DNA of 34,828 nucleotides from a virus (IMGVR_UViG_3300044501_000010:1-34828); one strand, 5' to 3'; shown: positions 9,146 through 23,820, counted from the stretch's first letter. Program-made: numbers and translations. Notes: generated from the sequence alone by a model not told the origin.

Positions 9146-12100
9146 CTAGTCCAGCTGCTCCTCGTCGATCACGGTCGGCAAGCCCCGTTCGTCCCGCTCG
9201 ATGCGCTTGCGGGTCCGCCGCGGCTTGCCGTTCTCCCTCCCGGTGACCACCTCGATCACGATCGGGGCCGGGGCCGGTGAGGCCTCCGGCGCTCGAATCT
9301 GGGTGCCCTTCGCCTGCCTCGCCGGTTTCCCGATGCGTTCCTTCAGCGCCGAGGTCATTACGCACCTACAATTAATCGACTCCTCCGGCCTGTCAATCTG
9401 GCCGGGCGCAGGTCCAGATCCTGCGCCGACTTCGAAATCCTCGTCCAGTGGGATCGGGTTGCCCTGGTAACGCTGATGGGCGGCGACATGCGTCTCCCGA
9501 GTCCGTTCATCTAGGGCGCTATTATGAACAACTAATCCATTGGCAATCATCCAACCGGTTTCAGTGGTATAGTCGTAAACATGGCAACTAGACGCAAAGA
9601 TCTTGACGTCCACGCAGGGGTCATAGCTCAGGAATATCGGCAAGGAAGCTCGACCAGAACTCTCGCACGGAAGTGGAAGTGCTCCCAGCCACGCATCTTC
9701 GAATGCTTGCGGTTCGCAGGCGAAACGCCGCGATCCTTCTCCGAGGCCGGCAAACTGCGTGCCAGCCGAGAAAGCGTCCAAACGATTCGGAAGCGGGTTA
9801 CCGCCGCCAAACGCATCAATACTGGCAGGCGCATGAGCGACAAGGCTCGCATTCGTAATGCGCTCAGCAAAGAACTCACCAAGCCGCACATCGGTAAATT
9901 CGAGCGCGAGCTGGCGAATGCTTTGCGAGTACATGGGCTCCAACCCGGCAGCCAGATTGCGGTGGACCGGTACAACCTCGATCTCGCTCTTCCGTCCATT
10001 GCCATCGAGGTACACAACTCGATGCACCATCCCGACCGAAGACACTATATTCAGCAACGTATTAAACGTCTCCGCGATCTCGGTTGGCATGTGATCTATA
10101 TCTGGTATCAGCCCGGCGTGTGGGGTGGCCCCTTCAACGTCAGCTTGGTCGCAGATCAGATCGTCGCCTTTGCAAACCTCTTCGGCAGCGATCCATCCGT
10201 GCCTCGTCAATACAGGGTGCTGTGCGGTGATGGTCAAGACTCGTCCCGCCATCGTCGTAAGTTTGACCATGCGGCCGTCGTACCATCGGCGCGCCGCACA
10301 GCTGACGCCCAATCCTGAAACCCTAGTTTCGCCACTCACGCAGAGCCATTCCTTGCCCTCGACGACTTCGCTCTGCTCCCAGGCCTCGAGTGTCGCCCCA
10401 TTTGCAGCTGCGAGGGTTTCTGTTCTAGCTATCGTCTCCGGCGTGGAGGCGATCCGGCCCTCCATGACGTCGACGACTCGGGCCGAGAGCTCCGGTATCC
10501 CCTCGCCGGCGCCAATGCCCTCGTTCAGGCTGGCCTTGAGCTCGCGCCAGGTCGTATCGTTAACCTCCTTGGCGAACCGTTGAGCTCGCTGTTCGAGAAA
10601 GCGTTGCACTTCCTGGGTGGCCGCAGAGAATGCCTTGTCGAGGCCCAAGTCCTCGAGCGCGTCCTGGCCAGCAGCCGTGACGATCTCTAGCAGCGGAGCC
10701 CGGGCGGTCGTGCGGAAGGTCCTGACCCATTGCGGCTTGCTGAACGGGTTGTCGGCTATGTCTTTCAAGTCGCGCTTACCACGCTCGCCTAACTTGCTCA
10801 GGACCGACTCGCGCTGGCGCTCGAATAGGTCGACCACTACCCGGCTGAACATCTTCTCGTGCGCCGAACTGCGCCGGATGAAACGGTTCCACATCCGTTC
10901 ATGCTCCTCGGATCCTAGCGGCAGCAGGCGGGATCCGCCCGTTGGCGCCCCTTGCGCCCCGGGCAGCAGCTCGGACAGGTCTTCCTCCGCATCGGCCTCC
11001 TCGGCCGGGGAAGCTGGCTCGGCGCTGGATACCGGCAGCAGACTCAGCGGCGCCCACCAGACGTCACCCCATCCGACCGGATCGAGTCCCTGCTCACCCT
11101 CGCGCCACTCATTGACCGTGATCGCGCCCTTGCTGATCTGCTCCGAGGCCCGCTGCCACTTGGCATCCTCGGCCTCCTGCAAGACCTCAATCCCACTGAA
11201 GTCGAATGCGACCAGATCAGCCTGGCCGTCGAACATCGGGACCAACTGCTCGGTGAGCTCGGCCGCCAGGAACTCGGCCTCGGGGCGCATCGTGCGAGCC
11301 CACAACGCCCGCTCGGATCCCTGGACGTTCTCGAAGGTCCGCTGCCCACCGACCAGATCGAGCGGGACGCCATAGGCGCGGCAGATGTCCTCGAGCGTCC
11401 ACTTGAGCAGTCCGAGGAATTCGGCGTCCTTCGGCGAAAACCCGATGGTCTCGGCCTTGACCTGGTGTTTGAACGCCGCCCAGCGGTGGGCCTTGTCGAC
11501 GCCCTTGAAGCGCTTCTCGAGGCCGGCGACGATGGCGTCGACTTGCTCGTCGCTCCAGACAATCTCCTTCTCGCTCGGCGAGATGATCCCGCCGGCGGTG
11601 ATGCCCTGGGTGAAGATCTTCATGTTGGATTGCATGGCGCCGCTCGAGCTGTCGGCCGCGAGCCGAGCCGCGGCGAGCGGGGAAAGCCCCTCAAATTCGT
11701 CGAGCGGGTTCGGGTAGCGGAACCAAATCGTCTCCTCGGGACTGTACTCGATGTCCTGGGCGGCGGTCGCCCGGGCCTCGAGCACGAAGCCGCTGACGTA
11801 GTCGGTTGGGTGGGGCTTGACCCGCACCCGGTCCGGCCGGGCCCACCAGATCTCCTTCGGCTCGCCGCGGCCACCTGGCCGTTCCAGGAACCAGAAACAT
11901 TCGCCCCAGAGGCCCAGGCTGATCTCGGTCATCCGCCAGAGCCGGGACATTGTCCAGAACTTATTGACCCTGTGCAGCAGGTCGACGAGCGTGCCGGACG
12001 TGATCTGCTCGAGGTCGCCGTCGGCCTTCTGCTTGTAGGCTTTCATCGGCAGACCGGCCAGCGAGCTCGCCCGCAAGTTAACGCAGGCGAAGACGCCGTT

Positions 12101-12232
12101 GGAGGTCGCGATGTAATTGCCGTATTCTTCGGGCGTGAACTCCTCGCTCCGCTTACCCCAAGTCGCGTCGAACGGGTCGACGACCGTCGGGCCTGTGACG
12201 AAGCTGCGCAGATTGGGGACCAGCCGGAGCAC
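9146..12232 (-). CDS. HK97-type portal fused to a MuF/SPP1 gp7-like head morphogenesis domain, intein-containing
   Basis: Portal motifs VFACVNLRASSLAGLP, LWGECFW, FRYPNPLDEFEGLSPL, DICRAYGVP, ITVNEWR..GLDP. MuF motifs TIARTET..A.N, KEWL|SALDERTRETH, INCRC. Confidence 0.9.
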   Translation of the reverse strand: MLRLVPNLRSFVTGPTVVDPFDATWGKRSEEFTPEEYGNYIATSNGVFACVNLRASSLAGLPMKAYKQKADGDLEQITSGTLVDLLHRVNKFWTMSRLWRMTEISLGLWGECFWFLERPGGRGEPKEIWWARPDRVRVKPHPTDYVSGFVLEARATAAQDIEYSPEETIWFRYPNPLDEFEGLSPLAAARLAADSSSGAMQSNMKIFTQGITAGGIISPSEKEIVWSDEQVDAIVAGLEKRFKGVDKAHRWAAFKHQVKAETIGFSPKDAEFLGLLKWTLEDICRAYGVPLDLVGGQRTFENVQGSERALWARTMRPEAEFLAAELTEQLVPMFDGQADLVAFDFSGIEVLQEAEDAKWQRASEQISKGAITVNEWREGEQGLDPVGWGDVWWAPLSLLPVSSAEPASPAEEADAEEDLSELLPGAQGAPTGGSRLLPLGSEEHERMWNRFIRRSSAHEKMFSRVVVDLFERQRESVLSKLGERGKRDLKDIADNPFSKPQWVRTFRTTARAPLLEIVTAAGQDALEDLGLDKAFSAATQEVQRFLEQRAQRFAKEVNDTTWRELKASLNEGIGAGEGIPELSARVVDVMEGRIASTPETIARTETLAAANGATLEAWEQSEVVEGKEWLCVSGETRVSGLGVSCAARRWYDGRMVKLTTMAGRVLTITAQHPVLTRHGWIAAEEVCKGDDLICDQADVEGATPHAGLIPDIDHMPTEIAETFNTLLNIVSSVGMVHRVVYLDGNGRKSEIEVVPVHRNLAAGLEPMYSQSIRQLALEFTDVRLGEFFAERITNASLVAHAPASIDAFGGGNPLPNRLDAFSAGTQFAGLGEGSRRFACEPQAFEDAWLGALPLPCESSGRASLPIFLSYDPCVDVKIFASSCHVYDYTTETGWMIANGLVVHNSALDERTRETHVAAHQRYQGNPIPLDEDFEVGAGSGPAPGQIDRPEESINCRCVMTSALKERIGKPARQAKGTQIRAPEASPAPAPIVIEVVTGRENGKPRRTRKRIERDERGLPTVIDEEQLD
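9565..9573 (+). promoter_or_regulatory. Extended -10 element for the nested antisense ORF (probably leaderless)
   Basis: TGgTATAGT ends 7 nt before ATG 9581; no Shine-Dalgarno in between. Confidence 0.55.
9581..10318 (+). CDS. HTH + DUF559/Vsr-like endonuclease nested antisense within the intein
   Basis: HTH-like EYRQGSSTRTLARKWKCSQPRIFECL; basic NUMOD3-like TGRRMSDKARIR; nuclease-like FERELANAL..QIAVDRYNLDLAL..IAIEVH...H...RIKRLRDLGWHVIYIW. Confidence 0.8.
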   Translation: MATRRKDLDVHAGVIAQEYRQGSSTRTLARKWKCSQPRIFECLRFAGETPRSFSEAGKLRASRESVQTIRKRVTAAKRINTGRRMSDKARIRNALSKELTKPHIGKFERELANALRVHGLQPGSQIAVDRYNLDLALPSIAIEVHNSMHHPDRRHYIQQRIKRLRDLGWHVIYIWYQPGVWGGPFNVSLVADQIVAFANLFGSDPSVPRQYRVLCGDGQDSSRHRRKFDHAAVVPSARRTADAQS

Positions 12233-18123: not shown

Positions 18124-18435
18124 ATGTCCCCTCGTCCTCATCCGTTATCGATAAGACCCTATAACGAAGTCGTGCTGGCTGGAAAACCCGCAGCCCAGCG
18201 CCAGCGAATCTCGGCCTCCCTCGAAGTCCATGGGCCACTGAACCGCCGGATGATCGCACAGGCAGTGCGACTTCCGATCAGCAGCGTTTGCTGGCGCGTC
18301 AAAGGCATGCTGCAATCCGACCTGCTACGGGTAGCCTACGTCAGCGAAGATCCGGTCACTGGCCAGGAGACCGAGTTCCTCGAAACGATCTGGCCGCAGC
18401 TCAAGCAGAAGTCCTTTGAGGGGTTCCTGCGATGA
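18124..18435 (+). CDS. Winged-helix DNA-binding protein
   Basis: GGAAGGAG RBS before ATG 18124; GPLNRRMIAQAVRLPISSVCWRVKGMLQSDLLRV. Confidence 0.75.
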   Translation: MSPRPHPLSIRPYNEVVLAGKPAAQRQRISASLEVHGPLNRRMIAQAVRLPISSVCWRVKGMLQSDLLRVAYVSEDPVTGQETEFLETIWPQLKQKSFEGFLR

Positions 18436-19163
18436 GCACAGGGCCAAAATTGTCTGGAATCTATACGATTGTCCATGTCACGAGTGGCCAAATCTATGTA
18501 GGCCAAGCGCAAAATATCCCTGAACGTCTACGGATTCATCGTCAGGTGCTACGTAGAGGGACACATAAAAATCACTATCTGCAAAATGCTTGGAATAAGC
18601 ATGGCGAAGAAAGGTTCAAGTTCAATCCGCTCATCATTTGCCCAATTTCGGAACTAACACGACTTGAACAAATGGCGCTCAATATTGTGCCAGCGCCTCT
18701 TCGCTATAACTTCTCGTTCGATGTTTCAGCACCCAGAAGAGGCGTGGTTACATCTCTAGAGACACGGCGCAAACTGAGTGAAATTAACAGAGCGGAGAAT
18801 CATCCAAACTGGGGGAAACCGCGTTCGGAAGAAATTCGTCACCGAATCGGCAAAGGCCAGATCGGAATCAAGAACCATAATTGGGGTAAGAGTGCATCTC
18901 CTGAAGCACGCGCCAAAATGAGTGCTAACCGGGCAGGAAAGCTAAAGTCCGATGAACATAAGCGGCATATCGGTGAGGCCCATAAGCGGAGAATAAGTCT
19001 AGAACTTCACGGTTCGAAATTGAGTATTGATCAAGTACGCGAAATCAAAGAACTCTACAAAGAAGTTTATTGGAGTCAATCAAGATTAGCGGTCAAATAC
19101 GGTATTACTCAAACCATGATCTCTAAAATCATAACGGGTAAATGTTGGGGTTATGTCTCCTAA
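18432..19163 (+). CDS. GIY-YIG homing endonuclease with NUMOD3-like repeats and C-terminal HTH
   Basis: SGIYTI...IYVGQA..I.ER...H...L..G.H.N..LQNAWNKHG; repeated NHPNWGKPRSEE / NHNWGKSASPE; visibly lower GC than the flanks. Confidence 0.9.
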   Translation: MSTGPKLSGIYTIVHVTSGQIYVGQAQNIPERLRIHRQVLRRGTHKNHYLQNAWNKHGEERFKFNPLIICPISELTRLEQMALNIVPAPLRYNFSFDVSAPRRGVVTSLETRRKLSEINRAENHPNWGKPRSEEIRHRIGKGQIGIKNHNWGKSASPEARAKMSANRAGKLKSDEHKRHIGEAHKRRISLELHGSKLSIDQVREIKELYKEVYWSQSRLAVKYGITQTMISKIITGKCWGYVS

Positions 19164-21599: not shown

Positions 21600-21853
21600 C
21601 TTCGTCCGACTGGGTCAGCGGCGGGGCGATCGCCTCGGGCTCGATCGATGCGGATGTTTTCGCCGCGGGCGCGATCGACGCGGCGACCATTGCGATCGAT
21701 GGGCTCGGCGTCGCGATGAGGGAGTTGGCCGGTCAGCGTGCCCCCAAGCCGAAGCCGCCGACCGCCGGGCAGGATCCCCGCTGCGAATGGTGCGGGATGC
21801 GGGCCCCTTCCGATCGACGGGGCGGCTGTGGCGCGTGCGGAGCGCCCCGGTGA
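21587..21853 (+). CDS. Small zinc-ribbon protein with a fibre-like repeat
   Basis: ATG 21587; C-terminal CEWCG...CGACGAP; GTGA coupling to the next gene. Confidence 0.6.
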   Translation: MSELTSSDWVSGGAIASGSIDADVFAAGAIDAATIAIDGLGVAMRELAGQRAPKPKPPTAGQDPRCEWCGMRAPSDRRGGCGACGAPR

Positions 21854-22557
21854 AGCCTGGAAGTCTGGCGCCATCGATGACTCAGCTGCGGGCCCTGGTT
21901 GAATTGGCCCGGCCCGGAACCCGGTTGATCGTCAACGACCGGGTCGCTAAGTGGATCCATGCGGCCTCAAAGCTCCGGGCGGGCGGGGTGCGGCCGGCGA
22001 CCGCGCAGTCGCTCGTCCGGGCCGGCTGGATTCAGCAAGTCGGCAGCGTCAGCATGTACTACGAGATCTCGGCGGCGGGCATGAAGATCGCCGCGGGTCT
22101 GGGCCCGGAGGACCTCCCCCCGCTCGGCGCCTCGAAGGCCGGCCTAGCGCCGGTAGATCTGCTGCGGGCCCTGGAGCGCCGGCATCCCTTTCCTGCCTGG
22201 GTCCTGGCCACTGAGGTCGAGATCGGCCTGGGCGAGCGCCGGCGGGTCGACGTACTGGCCGTGTCCGGGATCGAGGTCATCGCTTACGAGCTCAAGGTAT
22301 CCCGATCCGATTTCGAGCGCGAACTCGAGGATCCCAGAAAACGGGCGCGGGCGATGGAGCTCGCGTCGTCGTTCTACTTCTGCGCTCCGGTCGGGTTGAT
22401 CAATATCATCGAGCTCCCGCCCCGGACCGGCCTGATGGAGGTCCATGCACTCGGCGGCTCGCACGTCGAGCACAATGCCGAGCGGAAGGAACCCGAGCGC
22501 CCTGACTGGCCGCTGGTCGCCGCCATCTTGCGGGCGGCCGCGACTCGTTGGGGTTAG
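21850..22557 (+). CDS. MmcB-like PD-(D/E)xK nuclease-family protein
   Basis: RRVDVLAV....YELKVSRSDF..EL..P.K....FYFCAP.GL....ELP..TGLMEV. Confidence 0.75.
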   Translation: MKPGSLAPSMTQLRALVELARPGTRLIVNDRVAKWIHAASKLRAGGVRPATAQSLVRAGWIQQVGSVSMYYEISAAGMKIAAGLGPEDLPPLGASKAGLAPVDLLRALERRHPFPAWVLATEVEIGLGERRRVDVLAVSGIEVIAYELKVSRSDFERELEDPRKRARAMELASSFYFCAPVGLINIIELPPRTGLMEVHALGGSHVEHNAERKEPERPDWPLVAAILRAAATRWG

Positions 22558-22572
22558 CATTCCAGAGAAGAT

Positions 22573-23820
22573 ATGATCGCCCAAGCTGATTGTTTCCGCA
22601 TCCCGCTTCCAAACAAGAGCGTTCATTGCGTTGTCACCTCTCCTCCCTACTGGGGCCTGCGCAAGTACGCCGGCTATCAAGGCGAAGAGCCATTGGGCCT
22701 GGAGGCAACTCCCGAGCGCCACATTGAGCGTACCGTTCAGTGGGCGCGGGAGGTCTACCGGGTGCTGAGGGATGATGGCGTGTTTTGGCTAAATTATGGT
22801 GATGTCTTTTCCGGTGGGGGCAGGGGCGGCAGCGAGACTGCAAAGCAGGCCAGCAATAGAGGGAGCAGACAAGCAGACCGAGGCTATCTTGGCATTCCTC
22901 CGGGTAGCCTCATGCTCATGCCCCACCGGATCGCCCTCGCCTTGCAAAATGACGGCTGGATCGTGCGCCAGGACCTTGTGTGGGCCAAGCCCAACCCGAT
23001 GCCGGAGAGCGTGGCTGGTTGGAGATGGAATCAGATTAGCCCTCCAGAATTTCCCGACATAGATGCTGGGGAGATTGAACTCCGCCGCGGCTCCTGGAGG
23101 CACACCCGAGCCCACGAGTACGTCTTCATGCTCGTCAAATCAATGGGCTACTGGGCGGACCAGGAGGTGGTGAGGCAGGCCACGAGCGACAACACGCATA
23201 GCAGAGGTGTCAAGCGCGATCCACCCATTGATCACGCTGAGCAGGGACACGCTGATTGGGTGGCCTACATGGATCAAGATGGCGAGGTCGCTGAGGCGGG
23301 CCGCAACCCCCGCTCCGTCCTCCATATCCCAACCGCGCAGTACAAGGGCGCTCACTATGCCACCTTTCCGCCAGCCCTCATCACGCCGCTCATTCTAGCC
23401 ACCTGCCCCCGCTGGTGCTGCCCAGTGTGCGGGCAGGGATGGGCGCCGGTGGTGGAGCATTCTCTTAGCTTCGAGAGCGGATCGGGGAAGGCGGGCAATC
23501 CGCCCAATGGCAAATGGGCAGGCAGCGAGCGGCTCGGTACGAATGACATGCGAATGGGTCCAACGCCACACAATAACGTCCTCGGCCACCGCCCCACTTG
23601 CGACCACCCGCACACTCAGGCCGAGGCCGTGCCAGGTATCATCTGCGACCCATTTGTCGGGTCGGGCACAACGCTGATGGTAGGCAAGCAGCTCTTGCGT
23701 CGAGCGATTGGCTTCGATTTGTCCAGACCATATCTCCGAGATCAAGCGCTGATAAGAGCTGGCGGCGTTCCCTCCGATCAGAAGTTCGATGAGCTTCCCT
23801 TGTTTGCAGGAAAGGAATGA
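22573..23820 (+). CDS. N4-cytosine/N6-adenine DNA methyltransferase (beta class) with a Cys-rich insert
   Basis: VTSPPYWGLR, WAKPNPMPES, HYATFP, CPVCG and DPFVGSGTT. Confidence 0.92.
   Translation: MIAQADCFRIPLPNKSVHCVVTSPPYWGLRKYAGYQGEEPLGLEATPERHIERTVQWAREVYRVLRDDGVFWLNYGDVFSGGGRGGSETAKQASNRGSRQADRGYLGIPPGSLMLMPHRIALALQNDGWIVRQDLVWAKPNPMPESVAGWRWNQISPPEFPDIDAGEIELRRGSWRHTRAHEYVFMLVKSMGYWADQEVVRQATSDNTHSRGVKRDPPIDHAEQGHADWVAYMDQDGEVAEAGRNPRSVLHIPTAQYKGAHYATFPPALITPLILATCPRWCCPVCGQGWAPVVEHSLSFESGSGKAGNPPNGKWAGSERLGTNDMRMGPTPHNNVLGHRPTCDHPHTQAEAVPGIICDPFVGSGTTLMVGKQLLRRAIGFDLSRPYLRDQALIRAGGVPSDQKFDELPLFAGKE

Follow-up and report, generated by a model that had tools for sequence, protein, structure and literature searches.

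What is an intein doing with an interior that has no recognisable endonuclease in its own reading frame, and is the long open frame that lies inside it on the opposite strand a gene? The question is raised by the portal gene of the window, by which we mean the whole 34,828-nucleotide stretch of DNA that was analysed, a 34.8-kb virus record of 63% GC found in sediment metagenomes. Our answer, in which we have considerable confidence, is that the strand opposite the portal-MuF intein encodes a conserved nuclease with a helix-turn-helix (HTH) segment and a Vsr fold, likely a homing endonuclease, and that the minus strand is predicted to splice.

The host gene (9146–12232, minus strand) encodes a portal-MuF (gp7-like) fusion of 1028 aa including the intein, with Pfam matches to Phage_portal (E 2e-62) and Phage_Mu_F (E 8e-9) and a match to phrog_2662 (E 3e-106). 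MuF proteins are described as having no known function apart from SPP1 gp7, which binds the portal (PMC5576092), and the essential role in the virion first proposed for the restored portal-MuF protein is unproven. The intein (9521–10342, minus strand), identified by sequence, Pfam, structural model and Foldseek, is a class 1 intein of 274 aa (822 bp) that corresponds to residues 631–904 of the host frame and lies in the MuF part, at the site WL|S, C-terminal to a portal domain that is uninterrupted.

Class 1 inteins have Cys or Ser at position 1, TxxH in block B, an Asp in block F, a terminal His-Asn, and Cys, Ser or Thr at +1. All of these are present here (C1, T39xxH42, D257, H273, N274 and S+1), together with a Hint fold and an in-frame insertion relative to intein-free alleles. 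Cys1 in block A (10340–10342) and H42 of the block B sequence T39-A-Q-H42 (10217–10228) are invariant in all 23 aligned inteins, block F reads HVYDY (9569–9583) with Tyr in place of the family's usual Leu, and the terminal His-Asn (9521–9526) adjoins Ser+1 of the C-extein (9518–9520), all on the minus strand; the positions that the original prediction gave for these elements all hold. Pfam Intein_splicing matches at E 7e-5, which is under its curated cut-off. In the structural model the N- and C-terminal Hint parts have pLDDT values of about 86–97 and residues 139–234 are below 50; residues 89–134 are modelled at moderate confidence, and this portion of the model probably reflects the conserved core of the nuclease on the other strand. 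Foldseek searches with the model returned Hint structures only, and profile searches of the intein frame gave no match to LAGLIDADG or HNH families. The minus-frame interior is as anticipated, with no known endonuclease matched. By profile, selection and fold the intein lacks the canonical homing arrangement, in which blocks B and F flank an in-frame endonuclease.

The opposite strand carries a 245-aa reading frame (9581–10318, plus strand) that is codon-aligned with the intein and wholly inside it, in agreement with the coordinates first proposed. Its ATG is the reverse of the block-F His codon CAT, its stop codon is opposite intein Ser9, and its codons 213–216 are antisense to block B, inside the last predicted strand of the nuclease (residues 211–215, pLDDT >90). 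Two Pfam families, MTES_1575 (E 7e-7) and DUF559 (E 0.047), match the protein, each under its cut-off. Ten other genes of the window have codon-aligned antisense shadows that are stop-free for 113–438 codons, and because such shadows are common in a 63% GC genome the length of the frame is no evidence of a gene; homology, selection and fold therefore have to carry the case for a real gene. The overlap costs little in the shared register, because host stops arise only from TTA, CTA or TCA codons in the nuclease, which can be avoided synonymously; the nuclease gene uses none of the three. All 92 homologues compared are stop-free across block B (41 expected), and 88 of the 92 stop within the first 40 or so intein codons, from position 1 to three before block B (49.5 expected). 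No differences are listed inside the nuclease frame in eight sequencing runs, of which four cover it fully and two are possibly the source of this DNA.

A model of the nuclease built from 102 sequences (pLDDT 91) has three parts. Residues 6–45 (9596–9715, plus strand) form a three-helix HTH-like domain with helices at 6–20, 25–31 and 36–45; an HTH_7 match is found in 9 of 13 aligned homologues, the window's own protein not being among those that match. Residues 53–100 (9737–9880) form a basic helical linker of three long helices. The original prediction saw a NUMOD3-like segment here, a suggestion that fails, as there is no Pfam match to NUMOD3 or other NUMOD motifs in the nuclease, and none is present among the 25 of 43 families listed for the 13 homologues. 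Residues 106–225 (9896–10255) form a Vsr/EDxHD-like nuclease domain of alpha/beta type, recognised by Foldseek, profiles and conservation. The top Foldseek rows are 3R3P (I-Bth0305I), 1VSR (Vsr) and 1CW0 (Vsr bound to DNA), with probability 1.00 and E values of 4e-3 to 9e-3, none reaching 0.001, and profile searches match 3HRL (E 1e-7) and 3R3P (E 2e-5). Structure prediction thus bears out the HTH-like segment and, with Foldseek, the Vsr-like nuclease proposed for this strand, and a nuclease fold is found for 9581–10318.

The residues expected at a Vsr-type active site are largely present. In I-Bth0305I, E170, D196, N208, H213 and D222 are reported to pair with Vsr E25, D51, H64, H69 and D97, with a further conserved acid at the Vsr F62 position (PMC3239194). 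By spacing rather than by superposition, E108, D134, H145, H150 and E143 of the window's nuclease match Vsr E25, D51, H64, H69 and F62, and among the 102 sequences these are conserved in 100 (E108), 102 (D134), 54 (H145), 59 (H150) and 101 (E143). H145 is thus the commonest residue at its position, and because it is kept in 54 of 102 sequences and sits at Vsr His64, the motif EVH is a usual, Vsr-like feature of the family. For the last Asp of EDxHD (D222 of I-Bth0305I, D97 of Vsr) there is no conserved counterpart at position 157 in the 102 sequences, and none is conserved by eye around 157–159 in the 13-row alignment; R160 is near invariant instead. Because the final Asp is not conserved, we regard the nuclease as working like an EDxHD enzyme and not as a strict member of that group.

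Selection differs between the two strands along the element. Estimated by simple counting in overlapping frames, with some dS values near saturation, dN/dS between the window and its closest relative (L017) over the 142-codon interior is 0.19 in the nuclease frame and 0.87 in the intein frame, and the order is reversed in the Hint N region (0.79 and 0.27 respectively). Against a second relative (L018) the nuclease has a dN/dS of 0.30. Pooling six pairs gives 0.27 for the nuclease and 0.89 for the intein frame over 896 interior codons, and 0.88 and 0.26 respectively in the Hint C region; the interior contrast, with the nuclease frame the more constrained, has the same direction in 10 of 10 pairs. 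The few words conserved in the intein interior mirror motifs of the nuclease, with DFHGD opposite AVEV and VDVV opposite YNLD. By these comparisons of sequence, constraint in the interior acts on the nuclease, and the intein frame drifts there as filler; in the Hint blocks it acts on the intein. Such a switch between strands supports the two-strand mobile element of the original prediction.

Searches of GenBank phages with tblastn matched the intein frame in 108 records and the nuclease frame in 118. The two sets of matches coincide in position on opposite strands, and most lie in genes annotated as head-morphogenesis or MuF. The phages matched include those of Salmonella, Gordonia, Pseudomonas, Escherichia and Vibrio; homologues are found in Vivi2, Fosterous, Affeca, Angelicage, Sedona, Keitabear and Sejanus, and those in MuF-type genes of Gordonia and Mycobacterium phages are 27–36% identical. 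We assembled loci from GenBank phages (15), from IMG/VR by nuclease motifs (38), from bacterial genomes (9) and from metagenomes (20), and further IMG/VR loci by an intein motif, of which at least 516 were confirmed and the best 80 used. In all 54 loci of one set, which includes the window's own locus and some duplicates, the host frame has no stop in the codon-aligned register, and the other two registers have 3–33 stops. All of the best 80 of at least 516 intein-motif loci carry the antisense nuclease, 79 of these 80 being scored as codon-aligned and the other (L070) ending at a contig end, and about five of the 80 are broken or shortened (L094, L103, L107, L114 and L124). Nesting is also seen in 13 of the 14 metagenome loci inspected (20 fetched); the remaining one, a distant match (L256, 24% identity), lacks an open frame to nest in. 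The antisense frame is open also in AT-richer relatives with 41–46% GC. A full HMMER search with the nuclease gave 721 clusters at 50% identity with E values up to 1e-10, a count of protein matches. The antisense frame is therefore kept among homologous inteins, as the original prediction requires, with well over a hundred nested homologues and with antisense stops rare, and on these sequence matches the nuclease-bearing inteins are a large family across many phage groups and not an actinophage rarity.

The family occupies several insertion sites, most copies being at N|CRC of MuF genes, others at the MuF site WL|S/C used in the window, and others in terminase genes. Several members depart from the common form. 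Three copies (L027, L028 and L031) have the antisense nuclease inside inteins of terminase-like genes, with Tyr or Arg in place of the block-F His. Many nucleases have two or three HTH units in tandem (among them L004, L005, L007, L012, L014, L238 and L240), and in these copies the intein is longer by the same number of codons and is still open. Two shortened copies (L107, and L114 at 2001–2573) are 191-aa inteins with a 162-codon antisense frame, some copies among L107, L114, L124, L094 and L103 have early antisense stops, and it is possible that such shortened or broken copies are steps towards mini-inteins. In L044 and L045 the intein N-terminus and Cys1 are out of frame and the antisense nuclease is still open, which suggests a frameshift or an assembly error.

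The target site itself can be examined in intein-free alleles. All 33 loci retrieved via the C-extein are intein-free, some 77% identical over the C-extein. Most of these relatives are long portal-MuF fusions, whose identity over the N-extein reaches about 50%. At all 33 junctions WL (or WI, WV, WS or WW) runs directly into the C-extein, and the +1 residue is Ala in 18, Thr in nine, Ser in five and Cys in one. No splicing would be possible in the 18 empty alleles with Ala at +1 without co-conversion, and because the closest intein-free relatives have Ala the Ser+1 codon has likely been co-converted with the element. The commoner family site is present and empty in the window as ESINCRC (within 9146–9520, minus strand), about 50 residues downstream of the occupied site, and one locus (L235) is apparently the reverse, with WL empty and an intein-like start at N|C. 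We found no near-identical intein in a different extein, the nearest nuclease being 61% identical, and so saw no sign of recent homing of the window's copy.

Other genes of the window bear on mobility and DNA modification. A free-standing gene at 18432–19163 (plus strand) encodes a GIY-YIG homing endonuclease that has two NUMOD3 motifs and, at its C-terminus, an HTH; it is a second homing nuclease in this phage, unrelated to the intein nuclease. A 415-aa N6/N4 DNA methylase (22573–23820, plus strand) matches its profile in two stretches, is longer than the profile and has a Cys-rich insert near its C-terminus. Directly upstream is a gene (21787–22557, plus strand) with a match to phrog_5429, 'DNA repair protein', over residues 141–253, and its product was not recovered as a relative of the intein nuclease.

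For start signals of the nuclease within the splicing motifs, we compared 143 family loci (113 with bounds; 95 representatives after reduction at 70% identity) with 58 control intein loci from Chloroflexota and Actinomycetota (48 with bounds; 38 inteins compared). The resulting counts overstate significance because related sequences are not independent, although the contrast with controls is still large: a His precedes the block-F Val in 88 of 95 family inteins and 3 of 38 controls; this His is encoded by CAT, the antisense of ATG, in 75 of 88 (36 expected from extein codon use), with no such bias for the block-G His (29 of 64; 28 expected); and the block-F Leu is encoded by CTC, giving the Shine-Dalgarno sequence GAGGT on the antisense strand, in 57 of 83 (21.5 expected), with no bias in controls (9 of 20; 8.3 expected). 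A −10-like hexamer is present upstream in 67 of 95 family members (27.5 expected from synonymous shuffles) and 4 of 38 controls, and in 37 of the 67 it lies in block G, at a distance of exactly 45 nt from the His position. TG-extended −10 boxes are found in 30 of 95 family members (3.6 expected) and in none of the 38 controls. Antisense runs of at least 200 codons occur in 10 of the 38 control inteins, and none of the 58 control loci has a nuclease match. We lean slightly towards the interpretation that the splicing motifs form a full antisense expression cassette for the nuclease, rewired to a leaderless block-F promoter in the window's clade; so read, the cassette has its start at the block-F His, its Shine-Dalgarno at the block-F Leu, its promoter in block G and its stop in block A.

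When a −10 box stands some 7 nt ahead of an ATG, it marks the gene as leaderless. The window's copy has neither the Shine-Dalgarno nor the block-G −10 box, the Shine-Dalgarno Leu codon having gone because block F reads HVYDY, and it has instead a predicted extended −10 promoter of leaderless type, recognised by sequence pattern (TG-G-TATAGT, 9565–9573, plus strand), 7 nt before the ATG. In a nuclease tree made by a quick method the window falls in a clade of seven rows (SH-aLRT 97), and TG-n-TAnnnT is present in five of these, with a distance to the ATG of 7 nt in the window, L017, L238 and L240 and of 10 nt in L239, the box being TATAAT in L017 and L238. Most of the clade has lost the Shine-Dalgarno; two others of its members (L018 and L244) have GGAG in place of the extended −10 box, and a weaker box lies at 7 nt in L057, a neighbour of the clade. 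This pattern, chosen after seeing the data and present in five of seven members of one clade, predicts that the window's nuclease is made from a leaderless mRNA. The promoter-like box also makes it plausible that nuclease timing is uncoupled from late portal expression, as was first suggested.

The two-strand mobile element of the original prediction stands as regards the switch of selection between strands, the two folds and the nested homologues, and it does not stand as regards novelty, decay and NUMOD3. The mechanism we propose begins from two open frames that have codon boundaries in common and from an interior under selection as a nuclease between Hint blocks under selection as an intein. 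From the extended −10 box in block F, host RNA polymerase would begin a leaderless antisense transcript whose first bases are the ATG, so that production of the nuclease would not need late transcription of the portal gene. By analogy with I-Bth0305I the nuclease, probably a dimer, would cut an intein-free portal-MuF allele near WL|S, this allele belonging to a co-infecting or resident phage. Repair would copy in the 822-bp element, probably along with the Ser+1 codon where the recipient has Ala, and late translation would give a portal-MuF-intein precursor that, judging from the intact class 1 residues, would splice.

An alternative explanation is that the antisense gene is real and no longer homes, the nuclease being retained because it helps the phage by binding DNA or cutting competitors, and the intein being inherited vertically. 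This is consistent with the lack of recent transfer seen for the window's copy, whose nearest nuclease relative is 61% identical, with the missing conservation of the terminal Asp of EDxHD, and with several VSR-like cases that look vertically inherited in the account of bioRxiv 10.1101/2025.01.02.630785. However, the acidic catalytic residues are nearly invariant, the family's insertion sites are several and unrelated (two in MuF, one in terminase), the intein is missing from close exteins, and start and stop both lie inside the intein, as suits a self-contained mobile unit, and we consider this explanation improbable. A decaying relic is a still less likely account of the window's nuclease. 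EVHN departs from the EVDG pattern of DUF559, which the original prediction took as a possible sign of decay, the family's Shine-Dalgarno and block-G −10 box are missing, and about five of the best 80 of at least 516 relatives are broken. A relic is contradicted by the dN/dS values of 0.19 and 0.30 against L017 and L018, which largely refute decay, and by H145 being the commonest residue (54 of 102) with the spacing of Vsr His64; moreover, the extended −10 box replaces the lost signals in five of seven clade members, and no differences are listed inside the frame in the eight runs (four with full cover, two possibly from this DNA's source). That the plus-strand frame arose by chance, as the antisense shadow that GC-rich DNA gives a long mini-intein, can practically be set aside, even though stop-free shadows reach 438 codons on other window genes and antisense runs of at least 200 codons are found in 10 of the 38 control inteins, since the frame is open in relatives at 41–46% GC, intein-interior motifs are reversed nuclease motifs, 0 of 58 control loci have a nuclease match, and strand selection, the nuclease model and the Foldseek matches refute it.

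Several known systems are close to the window's element. The nested arrangement, which the original prediction flagged as possibly undescribed, has been described: Gosselin, Arsenault and Gogarten report full actinobacteriophage inteins with an anti-sense VSR-like endonuclease (bioRxiv 10.1101/2025.01.02.630785), and in the main text of that preprint these inteins, listed there as clusters 60 and 91, have a disordered in-frame interior and match 1CW0 and 3R3P; of minor capsid inteins it says that all their endonucleases are non-canonical. The window has the features of this class, an opposite-strand Vsr-like frame and an interior without recognisable fold, and it shares with the elements reported there a contiguous intein, a long helical stretch, the 1CW0 and 3R3P matches and a MuF host. 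It differs in its portal-MuF fusion host and in using WL|S instead of the commoner N|CRC, and its family extends beyond the actinophage set reported there to phages of Salmonella, Pseudomonas, Escherichia, Vibrio and others. The endonuclease VII-like inteins of the preprint (cluster 47) include Angelicage, Affeca, Keitabear and Sedona; here the MuF inteins of Sedona (L002), Angelicage (L005), Affeca and Keitabear carry antisense Vsr-like frames, and these phages may have a second intein elsewhere.

Among nucleases of this fold, I-Bth0305I as described in PMC3239194 resembles the window's nuclease in its N-terminal DNA-binding region with a predicted HTH, its C-terminal Vsr fold, its E, D, acidic residue and H at matching spacings, and as the top structural match (3R3P). 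It differs in sitting in a group I intron, in having N208 where the window's family has His, in having the final Asp, and in having NUMOD repeats where the family has a resolvase-like HTH. The Vsr-like nucleases of fractured genes reported by Dassa (PMC2677866) are free-standing genes between split-intein halves, and the window's nuclease is unlike both in overlapping the whole intein on the other strand. Anti-sense LAGLIDADG inteins (Synechocystis dnaX, Chloroflexus SpoVR-like and Gordonia minor capsid, as cited in 10.1101/2025.01.02.630785) have the same opposite-strand layout with a functional intein but a different nuclease family. The ShiLan HNH insertion in phage methylases (PMC11855218) likewise has its nuclease in another frame with the host frame kept open, but it is described as out of frame rather than antisense, with an HNH nuclease and without a splicing domain. 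In the literature searched we found no description of start signals in splicing blocks, a point on which the supplements of the preprint may bear; its main text does not mention a promoter, start codon, ribosome or block F, and 'Shine' occurs once. What is new here is the predicted leaderless block-F promoter of the window's clade, the breadth of the family and the question of Ala at +1; the layout itself is known.

That layout has barely been studied, and the nuclease is missed because annotation usually calls only the head gene. Isolated relatives (Escherichia phage Snoke, Mycobacterium phage Sejanus and Gordonia phage Vivi2), whose hosts are laboratory strains, make expression and homing testable, and the nuclease family is a potential source of site-specific enzymes. 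The element is a natural test of how a free nuclease gene and a mini-intein become one mobile unit without fusion, and of how far catalytic protein motifs can serve as promoter and ribosome signals. If the leaderless reading is true, the change of Leu to Tyr in block F removed the Shine-Dalgarno and created the extended −10 box, so that 15 bases would encode splicing residues, promoter and start codon together, and the nuclease would be made from a leaderless antisense mRNA by the host polymerase, independently of late transcription.
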